A stretch of DNA of 32,000 bases, taken from assembly GCF_000017845.1 (NCBI RefSeq), contig NC_010546.1:4800001-4832000 (forward strand). The letters are read 5' to 3'. Of this stretch, positions 4,277 through 29,483 are shown piece by piece. The notes below the pieces were generated by a model. The model did not search any database, had not been told where the DNA came from, and saw only the letters and a program-made list of their open reading frames with translations. A program made the translations under genes and the position numbers. How positions within the stretch are numbered: position 1 is the first letter of the stretch; every line of letters starts with the position of its first letter. The DNA is from Crocosphaera subtropica ATCC 51142 (GTDB lineage Bacteria > Cyanobacteriota > Cyanobacteriia > Cyanobacteriales > Microcystaceae).

Positions 4277-5260
4277 CTAAATATGCAGTGTCATTAACTT
4301 ATCCACTGCTTCAGAAATTTGGGGGGGTTGGACAATGGTCAATCGTTCTAACATTCCATTGTAAGGGGTAGGAATGTCTTGAGAGGATAAACGAACCACC
4401 GGCGCATCTAATTCATCGAAAAAGTTATCATTAATTAAAGCAATTAATTCCGCTGCGATCCCGCCGGTTTTCATACATTCTTCAACAATGATCACTCGGT
4501 GAGTTTTGCGGATAGAGTCCCCAATGGTTTGTAAATCAAAGGGTTTTAGGGAAATTAAATCAATAATTTCGGGATCATAACCTTGTGATTCAATTTGTTT
4601 TAAAGCCTGTAAACAATGATGACGCATTCTCGAATAGGTCAGAATGGTGACATCTTTCCCCTCTCTGACAATTTCGGCCTTATCTAAGGGGACGATATAT
4701 TCATTGTCGGGGAGGTTTTCTTTTAAGTTGTAGAGTAAAACGTGTTCAAAAAAGAGAACGGGGTTTTCATCTCGAATGGCTGCTTTGAGGAGTCCTTTGG
4801 CATTATAAGGAGTTGAACAGGCCACAATTTTTAAGCCAGGAACCGCATGGAAATAGGCTTCTAACCGTTGGGAATGTTCAGCCCCTAACTGTCGTCCTAC
4901 CCCCCCAGGGCCACGAATGACCATCGGAATTTTAAAGTTTCCCCCAGAGGTATAGCGTAACATTCCGGCGTTGTTGGCGATTTGGTTAAAGGCTAATAAT
5001 AAAAAGCCCATATTCATCCCTTCAATGATGGGTTTTAACCCAGTCATTGCAGCACCTACCGCCATTCCGGTAAAGCTATTTTCTGCAATGGGTGTATCGA
5101 GAACCCGCAGTTCTCCATATTTTTTGTAAAGATCCTTGGTAACTTTGTAGGAACCGCCATAGTGACCTACATCTTCCCCCAAGACAAATACTGTGTCGTC
5201 TCGTCCCATTTCTTCATCAATGGCTTGACGCAGGGCATTAAATAATAAAGTTTCTGCCAT
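4277..5260 (-). CDS. pdhB: Pyruvate dehydrogenase E1 component, beta subunit
   Basis: 327-aa [24 protein letters not shown]...[23 protein letters not shown] is a typical transketolase-like pyrimidine-binding E1-beta layout. Confidence 0.93.
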
Positions 5261-5594
5261 ATATTTATACTAATTCCTTGCCTTTGTTATCCTATCATCA
5301 CAGCCCTACATTTTATCGTTTTTGGAAAGCTATGAAGCTTTGTTTGTATTAAATTTTCACAATACAGTCATAAAAATGCAGACTTTTTCTTCATAAAAAG
5401 CTGTTTTTATCTATCCTTAGCTTAAGGATGAATAATGATTTTTGCTAAACTCTCACCGATGGAATAAATCACTAAAATTTCAGTTTCATCATTAATAAAA
5501 ATGATTAAATAACTAGGTCATAAGGTAGAGGGAATCAAATATTTTAATAAATAACATAGATAAAAGATGAAGAGTAATTAGAAGGAAACTTGAT

Positions 5595-6513: not shown

Positions 6514-6536
6514 AGGTTTTATATTAGGTAAAAACT

Positions 6537-25162: not shown

Positions 25163-26359
25163 ATGACATCTATTTACCCTCACAGCAAAGCAAAAGCCCT
25201 TAAACCTGGCAGTCGTCGTCCCGCCAAAGAACTCTGTAGTGAGTGTGGGTTATGTGATACCTATTATATCCATTATGTTAAAGAAGCTTGTGCATTTCTC
25301 AATCAACAAATTGCAGAATTAGAAACCATTGCTCACGGAAAAAGTCGCAATTTAGAGGATGAAAATGATTGCTATTTTGGGGTTCATCAAGAGATGATGG
25401 CAGCCCGAAAAAAAGACCCCATTGAAGGGGCGCAATGGACAGGAATTGTTAGTACCATTGCTTGCGAAATGCTAGAAAAGGGGTTAGTAGAAGGAGTGGT
25501 ATGTGTTCAAAATACAAAAGAAGATAGATTTCAACCGATGCCAGTCATCGCTAGAACTTCTGAGGAAGTTTTGGCTGCTAGGGTAAATAAACCCACTTTA
25601 TCCCCTAATTTATCCATCTTAGAACAAATAGAAAAATCTAACCTAAAACGTCTCTTAGTGATTGGAGTAGGCTGTCAAATTCAAGCGTTACGGGCAGTGG
25701 AAAAAGAATTAGGATTAGAGAAATTGTATGTATTAGGAACGCCCTGTGTCGATAATGTGACCCGTGAAGGGTTACAAAAATTCTTAGAAACCACCAGTCA
25801 ATCTCCTGATACGGTGGTTCATTATGAGTTTATGCAGGATTTTCGAGTTCATTTTAAACACGAAGATGGTTCAGTGGAAAAAGTTCCTTTTTTTGGCTTA
25901 AAAACGAATAAATTAAAAGATGTTTTTGCCCCTTCTTGCATGAGTTGTTTTGATTATGTTAATTCTTTGGCTGACTTAGTAGTAGGCTATATGGGGGCAG
26001 AGTTTGGTTGGCAATGGATTATGGTTCGTAATGATACAGGAAAAGAAATGTTATCCCTGGTAGAAGACCAAATTAATACGAAACCGGTCATTTCTCAAGG
26101 GGATAGAAAACAAGCGGTTCAACAAAGTATTCCTGCTTATGATAAAGGCGTAACCTTGCCCATGTGGGCTGCTAAATTAATGGGAGTTGTTATTGAAAAA
26201 GTGGGACCAAAAGGGTTAGAATATGCCCGTTTTTCTATTGATTCTCATTTCACTCGTAATTATTTATATGTAAAACGGAATCATCCTGAAAAGTTAGATA
26301 ATCATGTCCCTGACTATGCAAAAAAAATTGTGTCTCAATATCAGTTACCTGATAAATAA
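25163..26359 (+). CDS. bciB: FrhB-family Fe-S flavoprotein, probably ferredoxin-dependent 8-vinyl reductase (BciB / Slr1923-like; HCAR homolog)
   Basis: 398 aa. N-terminal Cys cluster CSECGLCDTYYIHYVKEAC, then an F420-hydrogenase-beta-like core (VGVGCQIQALR...LGTPCVDN...PSCMSCFDY). Cyanobacterial members of this family are the F-DVR type. The family call is firm; the specific function is inferred. Confidence 0.7.
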   Translation: MTSIYPHSKAKALKPGSRRPAKELCSECGLCDTYYIHYVKEACAFLNQQIAELETIAHGKSRNLEDENDCYFGVHQEMMAARKKDPIEGAQWTGIVSTIACEMLEKGLVEGVVCVQNTKEDRFQPMPVIARTSEEVLAARVNKPTLSPNLSILEQIEKSNLKRLLVIGVGCQIQALRAVEKELGLEKLYVLGTPCVDNVTREGLQKFLETTSQSPDTVVHYEFMQDFRVHFKHEDGSVEKVPFFGLKTNKLKDVFAPSCMSCFDYVNSLADLVVGYMGAEFGWQWIMVRNDTGKEMLSLVEDQINTKPVISQGDRKQAVQQSIPAYDKGVTLPMWAAKLMGVVIEKVGPKGLEYARFSIDSHFTRNYLYVKRNHPEKLDNHVPDYAKKIVSQYQLPDK

Positions 26360-26386
26360 ACACAACATAAATAAGAGTATTAATCT

Positions 26387-26464
26387 CTATTGAAAACAAG
26401 ATTTAGGGTCATTAAATCCACTTAAGAATGCCCGTCCTCGTTGTTCAGGGGTTCCATGATGATG
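26387..26464 (-). CDS. Exon 2 (predicted) of the intron-split YpfJ-like zinc metallopeptidase gene
   Basis: The minus strand immediately after the predicted intron 3' end reads CAT CAT CAT GGA ACC CCT GAA CAA CGA ..., giving HHHGTPEQRGRAFLSGFNDPKSCFQ* (stop at 26387-26389). It is in frame with exon 1. It matches the C-terminal HGT..QR...F..GF..DP..C motif I recall for YpfJ-like peptidases. Confidence 0.65.
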   Translation of the reverse strand, partial: HHHGTPEQRGRAFLSGFNDPKSCFQ

Positions 26465-26505
26465 GTTGGAGTCGAACAGGTAGTCACCTACCTGAACTCT
26501 CCTCA

Positions 26506-26539
26506 GAACCGTACATGAAATTTTCACTTCATACGGCTC
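26506..26539 (-). ncRNA. Group II intron domain V (catalytic hairpin)
   Basis: The minus strand reads GAGCCGUAUGAAGUGAAAAUUUCAUGUACGGUUC. This is 34 nt with the AGC catalytic triad, a GAAA tetraloop and a 2-nt bulge in the 3' strand, i.e. the canonical domain V pattern. Confidence 0.88.
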
Positions 26540-26546
26540 CCATTAA

Positions 26547-28346
26547 CTAGCCTATTGTCATAGGTACGATTACTACATCTTCTTTCCATTCATAATCATT
26601 TTTAGACCAATCCTGGGAACCGTCATTTCTGCTTTTGACATCATGACAGTGTCGATGTAGGGCTTGTAGATTATTATTTTCATCCTTTCCATTTTTTGAT
26701 TTGGGGATGATGTGGTCTATTTCTACAATATCCTCAGGTGTAAAGTGTTGGTTGCAGAGATTACATTTACCTTTTTGTTTCTTTAGGAGTTTGGCTACTC
26801 TTTTTGGTGTTTCTGGGTATTCACCTCTTCTTTTACTCCAATATGTCCAGTTTCCATCGTATGGTGAGGCATTGTCTTTTACTTTGATATGACGTTTGAT
26901 TTTTGTTTTTGAGTGCATTAGTAGAAAGTAACTCTTATTTTGAAACGTCCATTTCCCATGTATTCCATGAGAGAAGTATTTGTTCAATGCTTCCTTTTTG
27001 CCTTTTTTACTTCTGTTGATTGCCCAGGATTTTAGGTTTTCCCAAATATAACGGTCTTCATCGCTGAAGATTTTTTTACTGCACACCGTTGAGAAATAGT
27101 TGCTCCATCCTCTGATTATTGGATTTAGTTTGTTAATCAGAGCGTCTTGTGGTGCATTTCGATGAGTTCTGATAACTCTTTTTATCTCTATTCGGTGTTT
27201 TTGTTGGGATTTTTTACTGGGTTTGATGATTGTTTTGAATCCTAGTTTTTCTCCCATTGTGTTACATCCTGTTTGGTATTTTCCTACATGATGTTGTTTA
27301 ATGGTGAATCCTAGGAAGTCGAATCCAGCTTTTTCCATCTTTCCATCAATCATTATGTCATTTAGTGTATGACAGATTCTGGTTTTAGATGGTTTGAGTT
27401 CTAGTCCAACTTTTTCTAACCATTTATTTACCAGTTTTTGAGTATGGTTTATGATTTCTAATTCGTGATGTAGAATTACGAAATCGTCTGCATATCTGAT
27501 GATTTTTGGTTGATATCCTCTTATTCTTTTTCCTTCTCTTGTTATGGAGTTAGGGAAAGATTTTTGGATATCTCTAATCATTCCATCTAGTGCGATATTC
27601 GCCAATAATGGGCTTATAACTCCACCTTGTGGCGTTCCGCTATCAGTGGATTCAAATATGCCTTTATCCATTACCCCTGCTTTCAACCATTGTTTAATGA
27701 TTGATTTGAAATAGGGACAATCTGTTTTATCCAGGAGATATTTGTGATTTATTTTGTCAAAACATTTTGATATATCGGCATCTAGTACATATTTGGTTTT
27801 ATACCTTATATGATTGAAGATTGCTTCTATGGCATCATGAGTTGACCTTCCTGGGCGGAAACCGTATGAGTTACCTTCAAATTTGGCTTCCCAATATGGT
27901 TCCATACATAGTTTTATTAGGCATTGCATTGCTCTGTCGGTGATAGTTGGTATTCCTAGTGGACGTTTTTCATCTTTTCCAGGTTTGGATATCCATACTC
28001 TTCTTAGAGGTTTGGATTTGTAACCTTTTAGATTTAAACTTAGGGCTAATTGATATCGCTGTTGTGGGTGGATGATTTTCTTTCCATCTACTCCAGCAGT
28101 TTTTTTGCCCTTATTATCCTGTGTTACCTTTCTTACCGATAAGAGTTTTGCATAATACGATTTGGCTAGAAGTTTTTGAAGCTTATGTGCTTTTGCTTTT
28201 TCACCTGACTTAATCGCTTGAAAAATCCGCTTTTGAAGCTTAAACACTTTCCTTTGGACTTTTGCCCAATTGATAGTGTTCCATGATTCCGTAGTCTTGG
28301 TTATACTCGTTTTTTCCATTTTAACTTCTACTTGTTTGTTTTTCAT
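26547..28346 (-). CDS. Group II intron reverse transcriptase/maturase with a C-terminal HNH endonuclease
   Basis: 599 aa. RT motifs include RPLGIPTITDRAMQ and IRYADDFVILH (YADD). Maturase X region: IIRGWSNYF. HNH: CNLCNQHF...EIDHIIPKSKNGKDENNNLQALHRHCH. Confidence 0.95.
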   Translation of the reverse strand: MKNKQVEVKMEKTSITKTTESWNTINWAKVQRKVFKLQKRIFQAIKSGEKAKAHKLQKLLAKSYYAKLLSVRKVTQDNKGKKTAGVDGKKIIHPQQRYQLALSLNLKGYKSKPLRRVWISKPGKDEKRPLGIPTITDRAMQCLIKLCMEPYWEAKFEGNSYGFRPGRSTHDAIEAIFNHIRYKTKYVLDADISKCFDKINHKYLLDKTDCPYFKSIIKQWLKAGVMDKGIFESTDSGTPQGGVISPLLANIALDGMIRDIQKSFPNSITREGKRIRGYQPKIIRYADDFVILHHELEIINHTQKLVNKWLEKVGLELKPSKTRICHTLNDIMIDGKMEKAGFDFLGFTIKQHHVGKYQTGCNTMGEKLGFKTIIKPSKKSQQKHRIEIKRVIRTHRNAPQDALINKLNPIIRGWSNYFSTVCSKKIFSDEDRYIWENLKSWAINRSKKGKKEALNKYFSHGIHGKWTFQNKSYFLLMHSKTKIKRHIKVKDNASPYDGNWTYWSKRRGEYPETPKRVAKLLKKQKGKCNLCNQHFTPEDIVEIDHIIPKSKNGKDENNNLQALHRHCHDVKSRNDGSQDWSKNDYEWKEDVVIVPMTIG

Positions 28347-28919
28347 CTAATTAACGTCGAAGTACGTCTGCATATCCTTACCATTACAGTCAGGCATTAG
28401 CTTTTTACTTCTTCCTACTCCCATGTATCTTGCGCTTAGGTTTGTCACTACTCATTTATCGACCAATATGATGAGAGATATCATGGGGTTTCCCCGTTCC
28501 TCTTTTCTGGGTTATATGGTTTTAGATTCTCCCTCTCTCCCAGGCTACTTTTGGGAATCTGCTCAACTGACCAAACTAATCGTTGACTTTCGCCATGTTC
28601 TTTTGAACGCAGTGTGTCAGGTATATTTCACTGCTCGTAATTTTTTATGTATTGAGAGGTTAAGACAGGAGTTCAGCCGAAGCTTAATCTTGACCATTTG
28701 ACTTGCAGGGATTGTCTCATACCTGAGATTGGAACCTGCTTCCATTCCTGCTTCAAACTAAGAGTTACCAGCCCTTAATCTGAGGAAAGTGTCGTTGTAC
28801 CTTGGATTCCGTACAGAGCTACCTTTAAGCTCACAGAAAAGAAGTTATTTAGATTTCAAGGTTCATCTAAATGTCTAGCACGATGGTTTTGTCCATCTTT
28901 CCTAGACAACGGGTCGCAC

Positions 28920-29483
28920 AGTATGTTCATAATCATAGTCCCCTGTCATCATGGCAGTGATAGCCCCTTCTTTGACATCTCCAGGTTCTAATATTCCTAA
29001 CTCATCGGTAGCAGCAAAAAATGCCCCTGCTAAACAGTCAGCTTGCAACTCTAAAACCATGATAGGCAAATTCTTGTCAAGAATTCCTAAATGTTTTTGC
29101 ACAGAATGACCATATTCGTGGGCCAAAGCGAAAAAACCAGCAGAGTCACCTACTCTTTCAACTAATTTATCCATTTGAACCATATTCAGATGAATGGTGT
29201 TAGAATCAGCACAATAATGGGCTAATAATGAAGGACCACAGGGGGTCAACTCAATATTTCGGTGAGAATAAACCATCGGATAGGCATAGCCTATCCCTAA
29301 ACGGGTCAAAATTCCGCCCCAAAATGCGTGTAGTCCATTACTTACGGCTGATAAAGTAGGAGGGTCCCATGCTGCTTGGGTGGGTTGGAAGGGAAATAAA
29401 CCCAAAGACAGGGCAAGAATACTGAGAGCAACCTGTTTTTTCATCTTAATTCTCTTCATTAGCTTTTGGCTAGTTACGCACAT
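28920..29483 (-). CDS. Exon 1 of a secreted YpfJ-like putative neutral zinc metallopeptidase
   Basis: Signal-peptide-like MKKQVALSILALSLGLFPFQPTQA (alternative starts at 29459 or 29444). HExxH appears as AHEYGHSVQ, and ELQADCLAGAF follows. The track ORF (to 28902) continues 6 codons into the intron 5' end (GTG CGA CCC GTT GTC TAG), so the true exon ends at 28920. Confidence 0.8.

Follow-up and report, generated by a model that had tools for sequence, protein, structure and literature searches.

Group II introns inside protein-coding genes represent a minority habit among bacterial introns. In cyanobacteria, a general class of group II introns is found inside conserved genes, with core housekeeping genes as hosts. 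Among the introns for which structures have been solved, T.el4h (TeI4h, Th.e.I3; PDB 6ME0, 6MEC) of the cyanobacterium Thermosynechococcus elongatus is an IIB1/CL1 intron (PMC8643678), in which a domain IV ORF codes for a protein with RT, X and En domains. In T.el4h, EBS2 is placed in the ID multi-branched loop and EBS1 in a more 3' hairpin loop, and in all IIA and IIB introns EBS1 lies within subdomain ID (PMC8643678). With regard to target choice, Mohr et al. noted that poor splicing is to be expected where the IBS matches badly, and they regard largely complementary sites, with one or no mismatches, as typical of retrohoming (PMC2882425).

We have analysed a window of 32,000 nucleotides from Crocosphaera subtropica ATCC 51142, in which a small zinc-peptidase gene, cce_4664, hosts an insertion and is adjoined by an RT gene. 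In GenBank and RefSeq cce_4664 (ACB54012.1 / WP_009543289.1) appears as a full-length protein of 193 or 180 aa. In a preliminary description of this DNA it was claimed that a complete group II intron splits the gene, and we are confident that the element is a bona fide group II intron, apparently of the IIB chloroplast-like type, inserted in sense orientation in a PF04228 peptidase gene. As part of that explanation it is, with the same confidence, an ORF-containing intron of a known kind, and it fits the pattern of cyanobacterial introns inside conserved genes, although its host codes for a small peptidase whose function is not known and is not a core housekeeping gene, so that selection for efficient splicing may be weaker. 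Like T.el4h it has a cyanobacterial host, a domain IV ORF with RT, X and En, and the same layout of EBS1 and EBS2; this likeness rests on the protein match and the EBS layout. Unlike T.el4h, which resides in a tRNA-Ile(CAU) gene, begins with U and has YAGD in its RT (PMC2882425), the window intron resides in a protein-coding gene, begins with GUGCG and has YADD. No published description of this intron was found in the literature searched. It adds another apparently chloroplast-like group II intron within a cyanobacterial protein-coding gene, and leaves the understanding of how group II introns work unchanged.

Intron boundaries and the interrupted peptidase gene

The intron, its 5' motif and the two exons were placed as follows.

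26465 to 28919, minus strand: group II intron, 2455 nt (GUGCG 5' end, RF00029 match end, ortholog alignment)
28915 to 28919, minus strand: 5' splice-site motif GUGCG (GUGYG in relatives)
28920 to 29444, minus strand: peptidase 5' exon, 175 codons from ATG 29444 (MKKQV...)
26387 to 26464, minus strand: peptidase 3' exon, HHHGTPEQRGRAFLSGFNDPKSCFQ plus stop codon

The Rfam check proposed earlier returned an RF00029 match at 26541..26465 (63.6 bits against a gathering score of 40, E=1.8e-10, full model 1-77) that ended exactly at 26465, the predicted 3' boundary. A permissive-E-value Rfam search of 26300-29100 gave domain V/VI models only and none for the intron 5' half, and for this reason the 5' boundary rests on the GUGCG motif, found at 28919..28915 as had been claimed, and on ortholog alignment. 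Five Crocosphaera/Cyanothece orthologs are uninterrupted and have an identical tail, running through EHT-HHHG without a gap, as anticipated. With the closest of them (locus L001, 97% protein identity) the joined CDS could be aligned ungapped over 603/603 nt at 93.7% identity, and the BLAST alignment with this intron-less locus is interrupted at 28921/26465, its two parts abutting in the subject (6524/6525). The uncertainty of one nucleotide comes from BG0011 having ACC where the window has ACT. Empty sites of the form ...GAACATAC(C/T)CATCATCAT... were present in six loci from five Crocosphaera/Cyanothece orthologs, whose proteins run EHTHHHGTPEQR; the gene order PDT, LON-domain protein, peptidase and FrhB is common to the window and these loci. 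The GUGCG start, the RF00029 end and ortholog continuity agree on a complete intron at 26465-28919. The predicted junction is an exact match to the uninterrupted orthologs, which marks the element as an ordinary intron overlooked in the public annotation.

It was also suggested that the 3' splice site might lie 3 nt further on (26462/26461), giving a product with EHT-HHG. Such a junction stays in frame, and in orthologs further removed just two His stand here, after N, S or Q, but the Rfam model ends at 26465, the usual 7 nt after the bulged A, HHH occurs in all orthologs that are at least 84% identical, and the gapless 603/603-nt alignment was obtained only with 26464. The alternative junction was rejected in favour of 26464, and we give it practically no credence.

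The exon-1 ORF (28902-29483, minus strand) had been described as an incomplete gene whose last 6 codons are intronic, and it does terminate ...GAACATACT/GTGCGACCCGTTGTCTAG; the unspliced frame reads 6 codons of the intron (VRPVV and a stop at 28902). Ligation of 28920 to 26464 keeps the frame, as proposed, and gives ...DYDYEHT/HHHGTPEQRGRAFLSGFNDPKSCFQ followed by a stop codon, a 642-nt ORF of 213 aa from the longest start that is continuous with the uninterrupted orthologs. While the spliced ORF stands as computed, the 213-aa product does not, since this ORF begins at 29483, and orthologs and RefSeq WP_009543289.1 share a start 13 codons downstream, the MKKQV ATG at 29444; the spliced peptidase is thus probably 200 aa long, not 213. 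The insertion point lies 26 codons ahead of the peptidase stop. Going by the joined frame, what is annotated as the cce_4664 protein is exon 1 of this predicted peptidase of 200 aa, whose true C-terminus, including the conserved HHGTPxQR motif, has been left out of the public annotation. Exon 2 differs from that of BG0011 in 2 codons, both synonymous, and contains no frameshift and no stop.

The joined product matched PF04228 (Zn_peptidase) with 59.1 bits (cut-off 23.2, profile positions 98-285). Its HExxH motif, present as HEYGH, is invariant in homolog alignments, and HHGTPxQR...G...P..C in the exon-2 tail is near-invariant across 49 homologs, in accord with the earlier statement that the tail carries a conserved family motif. 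The term YpfJ-like, used in the preliminary description, holds at the Pfam level, as E. coli YpfJ / KPN_02809 shares PF04228, HExxH and the C-terminal HHGTPxQR with the joined product, but it fails at the equivalog level, where the score for NCBIfam NF050010 (YpfJ/KPN_02809) was 73.8 bits against a cut-off of 250. Because of this score we regard the product, which has 200 aa compared with about 285 in the E. coli YpfJ / KPN_02809 family, as a family relative (a shorter paralogous subfamily) and not as a YpfJ ortholog. The AlphaFold model of an ortholog is confident (pLDDT 87-98) over residues 171-200, the exon-2 tail. No sequence relative of the peptidase was found in the PDB, and Foldseek against the PDB gave weak matches only, to selecase and SPRTN-type minimal zincins (E ~0.1-1); the exon-2 histidines are thus putative metal ligands. 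The exon-2 tail may be needed for activity, and the peptidase, which bears a signal peptide, is presumably secreted.

Ribozyme domains and the intron-encoded protein

The six domains of the intron were assigned from the RNAalifold consensus (domains I to III), the ORF (domain IV) and RF00029 (domains V and VI).

28493 to 28913, minus strand: domain I (intron nt 7-427), closing helix CCCGUU/AACGGG
28420 to 28487, minus strand: domain II (intron nt 433-500)
28359 to 28411, minus strand: domain III (intron nt 509-561)
26547 to 28346, minus strand: intron-encoded protein in domain IV, 599 aa from ATG 28346
26506 to 26539, minus strand: domain V, 34 nt, AGC triad and GAAA tetraloop (RF00029 alignment)
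26468 to 26502, minus strand: domain VI, bulged branch-point A 26472 (RF00029 structure line)

Folding of domains I-III from 15 relatives gave 110 consensus pairs, of which 80 had compensatory changes, and the window intron maps onto all of the consensus helices. The 34-nt domain V at 26506-26539, predicted earlier, was confirmed; its sequence occurs once in the window, and it scored 51.9 bits with the plastid ndhA/ndhB D5 model, just below the cut-off of 53. In the RF00029 alignment the branch-point A26472 occupies the bulge columns and leaves 7 nt to the 3' end, which agrees with the branch A previously nominated. The catalytic elements that were checked (GUGCG, AGC triad, GAAA loop, bulged A and domain I-III helices) are all intact.

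From ATG 28319, the start that relatives share and RefSeq adopts, the intron-encoded protein has 590 aa. The proposed RT/X/HNH ORF was borne out by matches to RVT_N, RVT_1 (145 bits), GIIM (71 bits) and HNH, and to the group II intron RT/maturase model TIGR04416 (350.7 bits, cut-off 300). The RT active site YADD is at residue 285, and the predicted HNH domain (PF01844, 42.1 bits) spans residues 528-572 with CNLCN...DHIIP...NNLQALHRHCH. Judged by its translation, the RT/maturase/HNH reading frame is intact. In a comparison that covered solved structures only, the best match was the T.el4h maturase 6ME0_C (368 bits, E=6e-109), nearly full-length and including En (residues 2-577), followed by the GsI-IIC RT 6AR1 (128 bits), the group II RT/maturase 7UIM (123) and LtrA (110).

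Exon recognition and an internal loop-loop contact

The following elements were located from comparison with relatives.

28920 to 28925, minus strand: IBS1, CAUACU (exon -6 to -1), from the pairing comparison
28928 to 28932, minus strand: IBS2, UUAUG (exon -13 to -9), same exon positions in relatives
28572 to 28577, minus strand: EBS1, AGUUUG (intron nt 343-348), loop of hairpin nt 334-357
28645 to 28649, minus strand: EBS2 candidate, CAUAA (intron nt 271-275), position homologous to EBS2 of relatives
28719 to 28724, minus strand: AGGUAU in hairpin nt 181-215 (IC2-like position), loop-loop pairing partner
28619 to 28624, minus strand: AUACCU in the loop of hairpin nt 286-311, partner of AGGUAU

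When 33 related insertion sites were compared, the loop at nt 337-357 proved complementary to the 5' exon of its own intron (permutation p<=2e-4), with at least 5 bp to its own exon in 58% of relatives compared with 16% for the exons of other introns. In the window intron EBS1 occupies the same position as in relatives, measured from both flanking anchors, and AGUUUG pairs with 5/6 of IBS1, with a U.U mismatch at -4. CAUAA pairs 5/5 with UUAUG, and EBS1 and EBS2 together pair with 10/11 exon positions. The CAUAA sequence is in single-stranded nt 268-285, between the helix 262-267/378-383 and the hairpin 286-311, a placement that agrees with EBS2 of subgroup IIB, and the C. watsonii copies have a GGAGG/CCUCC pairing at the same IBS2 exon positions.

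The AGGUAU/AUACCU contact is internal to the intron and was found in 10 distinct covarying hexamer variants, with complementary hexamers in 22/23 relatives. It was scored by an anchor-defined hexamer test, since MAFFT left the loops of two subgroups out of register. The AUACCU hairpin adjoins EBS2. Taken together, the comparative set places both exon-binding sites, EBS1 and EBS2, as well as the covarying loop-loop contact, in a whole Crocosphaera intron family.

In the preliminary description GGUAUG (28723..28718) was tentatively named EBS1, and it might be functional in this way either in place of the canonical loop or with its nucleotides serving two roles. Its 6-bp complementarity to CAUACU, including one G-U, is real and becomes 6 Watson-Crick pairs with CAUACC of the BG0011-type empty site; in addition, the close relatives L048 and L070 have runs of at least 6 bp between the GGUAUG region and their own exon. 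When the first 600 nt of the intron were dinucleotide-shuffled, however, at least one match of this type arose by chance in 45% of shuffles (mean 0.57), and across the 33 sites the region had no own-exon preference (p=0.48) where the nt 337-357 loop did. Five of the 6 GGUAUG nucleotides fall in the hexamer that pairs with nt 296-301 and covaries through the 10 variants, two also fall in a local hairpin stem, and the hairpin itself (nt 181-215) precedes subdomain ID, where EBS1 belongs. Position, chance rate and the covarying contact therefore speak against such a role, which we consider highly improbable. GGUAUG was dropped as a candidate EBS1, as it overlaps AGGUAU and the relatives carry EBS1 in another hairpin.

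Splicing, mobility and the lineage of the intron

With AGUUUG as EBS1, the pre-mRNA would fold into a six-domain ribozyme in which EBS1 and EBS2 (CAUAA), both in subdomain ID, grip the 5' exon by pairing with its IBS1 (CAUACU) and IBS2 (UUAUG). The bulged A26472 would use its 2'-OH to attack the phosphate at 28920/28919, and the released 5' exon would then attack 26465/26464, with splicing helped by the intron's own RT/maturase. Exon ligation would yield the 200-aa ORF, its last 25 residues being the HHGTPxQR tail, whereas without splicing a truncated product of 180 aa from MKKQV, ending VRPVV, would be expected. In principle, the excised RNP could reverse-splice into DNA, where the HNH domain would nick the opposite strand and target-primed reverse transcription would copy the intron. 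Given the sequence, it is reasonable to suppose that the intron splices in vivo, that peptidase function depends on splicing and that the intron is mobile at present.

It may instead be that the intron is real but splices very poorly or no longer, and that cce_4664 was truncated or inactivated by a recent, mildly deleterious retrotransposition. Since EBS1-IBS1 has an internal U.U and EBS2-IBS2 consists of 5 AU-rich bp, splicing could be inefficient, and the rule of Mohr et al. on mismatched IBS (PMC2882425) counts in favour of this possibility. An exact look-up among 15 billion proteins did not return the joined protein (200, 205 or 213 aa). The insertion is seen only in this strain and, unspliced, in Logan contig L002 from one further sequencing run, the sole other record of the intron-bearing allele, while the six loci of the five orthologs are empty; as presence or absence varies at strain level, the insertion is dated as recent. 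Against this, a single EBS1 mismatch is still inside the one-or-no-mismatch class (PMC2882425), the catalytic elements checked and the maturase ORF are intact, and exon 2 is free of non-synonymous changes, frameshifts and stops, although this last point carries little weight should the insertion be recent. We therefore hold a loss of splicing to be unlikely and prefer the reading of an active intron, in which the single EBS1 mismatch offers a convenient natural test of mispairing tolerance in vivo.

The related introns (L003-L077) come from Crocosphaera watsonii WH 8501, Cyanothece sp. BG0011, C. chwakensis and Crocosphaera MAGs. Their proteins are 63-72% identical to that of the window intron, their 5' ribozyme halves can be aligned with it (nhmmer E down to 1e-55), and the domain I-III helices, the EBS1/EBS2 positions and the loop-loop pairing are common to all. 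For many relatives the exact 3' end is uncertain. The window intron differs in that it is without one small domain I hairpin present in most relatives and has an extra 8-nt A-rich insertion beside EBS2. Metagenome scans gave no match to the exact intron 5' end and none to the ligated-exon junction, a plasmid megablast gave no match, and the contig index contained no record of the exact intron protein. In a genome-contig collection without the C. subtropica genome the closest other intron protein was 72% identical; as no copy exceeded this value, the window intron appears to be a separate member of the lineage, known from C. subtropica alone.

The nearest RNA relatives with a GUGCGACC start are at the 3' ends of tRNA genes, in contrast to the protein-coding location of the window intron; L048 is inserted in tRNA-Ala(CGC) and L077 in tRNA-Arg(CCT), both between tRNA positions 71 and 72. 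The window intron might descend from this Crocosphaera/Microcystaceae tRNA-3'-end lineage, re-targeted by EBS divergence, with partial splicing throttling the peptidase. We see this as a rather unlikely origin; if true, it would capture an intermediate in target switching. On such a reading, EBS2 would appear as fully re-matched and EBS1 as one mismatch short.

The intron and the gene that it splits

The peptidase gene is interrupted by a group II intron that runs on the minus strand from 28919 to 26465 (2455 nt). The exon-1 ORF (28902-29483, minus strand) ends in GAT TAT GAA CAT ACT followed, across the 5' splice site, by GTG CGA CCC GTT GTC TAG. Every element named in the preliminary description was recovered where it had been placed.

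26541..26465, minus strand: match to RF00029 (group II intron domains V/VI), 63.6 bits against a gathering score of 40, full model covered
26539..26506, minus strand: domain V, occurring once within the window
26472, minus strand: bulged A of domain VI
26547-28346, minus strand: intron ORF of 599 aa with RVT_N, RVT_1, GIIM and HNH domains, lying between both intron ends

RF00029 was the sole Rfam match above gathering score in the whole window, and on its 3' side the intron ends with the last nucleotide of that match, 26465. The intron protein contains YADD and scored 350.7 bits against the NCBI group II RT/maturase equivalog model (cut-off 300). The first ATG of its ORF (28346) is not conserved, as relatives have AAG or stop codons at that place; the second (28319, MEKTS...) is common to relatives and is also the RefSeq start, giving 590 aa. 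Just 5' of the ORF start (28319-28346) lies a hairpin, ACGU-ACUUCG-ACGU, that resembles a domain IVa maturase-binding site spanning the start region.

Joining 28920 to 26464 produces a 642-nt ORF ending in ...DYDYEHTHHHGTPEQRGRAFLSGFNDPKSCFQ and a stop; the predicted ligated exons read ...GAACATACT joined to CATCATCAT..., and the predicted peptidase includes the peptide ...DYDYEHTHHHGTPEQR. Among 5.8 billion protein clusters, uninterrupted 200-aa orthologs were found at 97, 96, 92, 84 and 82% identity, from sources including Cyanothece sp. BG0011, Crocosphaera chwakensis and Crocosphaera MAGs. The closest (P0001, P0002, P0003 and P0006, at least 84% identity) have exactly the tail of the joined product, with three histidines, the first of which is replaced by N, S or Q in orthologs at 82% identity or less. 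The intron-free locus of BG0011 (L001) has the same neighbours as the window, namely a prephenate dehydratase, a LON-domain protein, the peptidase and an FrhB-like gene. Exons 1 and 2 map to its adjoining positions 6524/6525, and the joined CDS aligned to it without gaps over 603/603 nt at 93.7% identity. The empty site, GAACATAC(C/T) directly followed by CATCATCAT, was present in six loci from five orthologs. A junction 3 nt further on, which would remove one histidine, is ruled out by the Rfam boundary and the ortholog alignments. The main claim of the preliminary description, a group II intron in a peptidase gene, holds good, and so does its predicted junction, 28920/26464. Its 213-aa product is less likely than one of 200 aa, since the orthologs and RefSeq start at MKKQV (ATG 29444); from sequence comparison, 200 aa is most likely the length of the peptidase.

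The host peptidase and its annotation

The product had also been called YpfJ-like. The joined protein does match Pfam PF04228 (59 bits, cut-off 23.2), but scored 73.8 against the YpfJ equivalog model, far under the cut-off of 250; judged by these scores, it is related to YpfJ but shorter, and not an ortholog. HEYGH is invariant among the homologs, and the exon-2 residues H177, H178, G179, T180, P181, Q183 and R184 (numbered in the 200-aa protein) vary little or not at all in 49 homologs, down to 30% identity. For the 97%-identical ortholog AlphaFold gave a confident model (mean pLDDT 90.7), in which the exon-2 tail folds into two helices (residues 171-200, pLDDT 87-98). Confidence is low for residues 1-26, which hold a hydrophobic helix, short, of the kind that a signal peptide would have. 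Because Foldseek found only weak likeness, to minimal zincins (selecase, SPRTN), and no PDB relative was found by sequence, we reasonably infer, rather than report as results, that the exon-2 tail is required for peptidase activity and that the peptidase is exported.

The intron protein matches ACB54011.1/WP_009543291.1 at 100% identity. Two records are identical to the exon-1 ORF: cce_4664 (ACB54012.1), a "hypothetical protein" of 193 aa, and WP_009543289.1, a "neutral zinc metallopeptidase" of 180 aa. All of these lie on the 4.93-Mb chromosome of strain ATCC 51142 of Crocosphaera subtropica, a species once named Cyanothece sp. The public annotation therefore takes exon 1 for the whole gene: exon 1 plus six intron codons (28902-29483) is given as a complete protein, and exon 2 (26387-26464) is without coding annotation. 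No description of this intron was found in the literature that was searched, and one value of the finding is the correction of this annotation.

Ribozyme fold and exon-binding sites

The 5' 570 nt of the intron could be aligned with about 70 related introns retrieved via the intron protein. The RNAalifold consensus of 15 of them has 110 pairs, 80 with compensatory changes, and mapping its helices onto the window intron gave the following limits, in intron nt.

7-427: domain I
433-500: domain II
509-561: domain III
domain IV: holds the ORF
2381-2414: domain V
2448 of 2455: branch-point A

The closest solved relative of the intron protein is the maturase of T.el4h, an intron of Thermosynechococcus elongatus (6ME0_C; 368 bits, near full length), and domain V almost reaches the plastid ndhA/ndhB D5 model; on these grounds the intron was filed as IIB, chloroplast-like. 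T.el4h itself belongs to IIB1, and its RT is of the chloroplast-like-1 type (PMC8643678). The present intron is provisionally placed in clade CL1; it is unexceptional within a class that is well understood. It differs from its relatives in two places: an A-rich insertion of 8 nt follows EBS2 immediately on the 3' side (28636-28644, intron nt 276-284), and the nt 105-124 stem-loop (28796-28815) is without a small hairpin that most of them have.

GGUAUG (intron nt 197-202) had been tentatively proposed as EBS1. It is complementary to IBS1 (CAUACU, exon -6 to -1), yet such a hexamer is expected 0.57 times per 600 nt and occurs at least once in 45% of dinucleotide shuffles. The proposal is rejected. 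GGUAUG sits in a hairpin (nt 181-215) 5' of subdomain ID, the IC2 position of the standard nomenclature. The loop of this hairpin has, in 22 of 23 relatives, a hexamer that pairs fully with the six nt immediately 5' of a conserved GA(C/U)A; this motif is part of the hairpin loop that comes after EBS2. Ten versions of the hexamer occur across the window intron and its relatives.

Loop-loop pairs
Window: AGGUAU/AUACCU
Relatives: AGAUAU/AUAUCU; AAGCAC/GUGCUU; AAACAC/GUGUUU; AAACAG/CUGUUU; AAUCAG/CUGAUU; AACCAA/UUGGUU; AAAUCC/GGAUUU; AGACAG/CUGUCU
Tenth loop hexamer: AUGUUU (L012); it alone lacks a fully complementary hairpin partner

The two loops form a kissing interaction inside the intron, presumably the beta-beta' of group II introns.

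EBS1 was sought at 33 related insertion sites by complementarity anchored at exon position -1, each intron's own exon being compared with the exons of other introns by permutation. The loop aligned with window nt 337-357 formed at least 5 bp with its own exon in 58% of cases against 16% for other exons (p<=2e-4), and the nt 181-215 hairpin showed no own-exon preference across the same sites (15% vs 12%, p=0.48). As in the window intron, 6-7 bp can form between the homologous hairpin and the end of the intron's own 5' exon in two of the five closest relatives (L048, L070), against a background of about 12%; the positions within the hairpin differ, and this was taken as chance.

28577..28572, minus strand: EBS1 candidate AGUUUG, at the position homologous to the relatives' EBS1, counted from both flanking anchors
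28649..28645, minus strand: EBS2 candidate CAUAA, in a single-stranded multi-branch loop, pairing with UUAUG (IBS2) at exon -13 to -9

AGUUUG pairs with CAUACU at 5/6 positions, with a U.U mismatch at -4. As T stands at exon -4 in all empty sites, the mismatch was not made by later exon mutation. A single-stranded multi-branch loop is the location of EBS2 in IIB introns (PMC8643678), and the exon positions paired with EBS2 are the same in relatives. Together the two sites pair with the 5' exon at 10/11 positions; for Mohr et al., "one or no mismatches" is what marks sites of the retrohoming type that are competent for splicing (PMC2882425).

Occurrence and related introns

An exact-sequence look-up in the protein collection did not find the spliced product, and the only other record of the intron-bearing allele is a Logan contig, which is unspliced. 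Among other intron proteins in public data the closest is 72% identical, and the intron is therefore at most a low-copy, strain-restricted element. It may still be mobile, to judge by its intact ORF and ribozyme. The locus offers a tidy natural case of a cyanobacterial protein-coding gene that has recently gained an intron.

Of the RNA relatives that start GUGCGACC, those nearest to the window intron interrupt tRNA genes at their very 3' end.

L048: 2169-2318 and 4899-4998
L077: 2195-2344 and 4922-5021
also L011, L070 and L073

On the joined exons ARAGORN called tRNA-Ala(CGC) in L048 and tRNA-Arg(CCT) in L077, with both introns between tRNA positions 71 and 72, such that splicing would rebuild the 1-72 pair and the discriminator base. 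The flanks of L011 and L070 resemble a T-arm, yet no tRNA was called in them. T.el4h is likewise known to be inserted into a tRNA-Ile gene (PMC2882425).

In eight relatives (L057, L038, L004, L013, L042, L024, L025 and L021) no GUGYG lies 70 nt or less from where the 5' end is expected; the intron proteins of several of them are among the most similar to that of the window (68-71% identical). At the same site all eight carry a UUACCGAACARC-like motif, repeated twice, about 60-130 nt 5' of the nhmmer match; either these introns have 5' ends of an unusual kind, or the ends have been replaced. Crocosphaera watsonii WH 8501, the source of about 25-30 of the 76 related loci, has extra intron 5'-region fragments, inverted, beside full copies in L021 and L023 (nhmmer, minus strand, about 4893-5293 and 1994-2174), an arrangement that suggests nested or clustered intron insertions.
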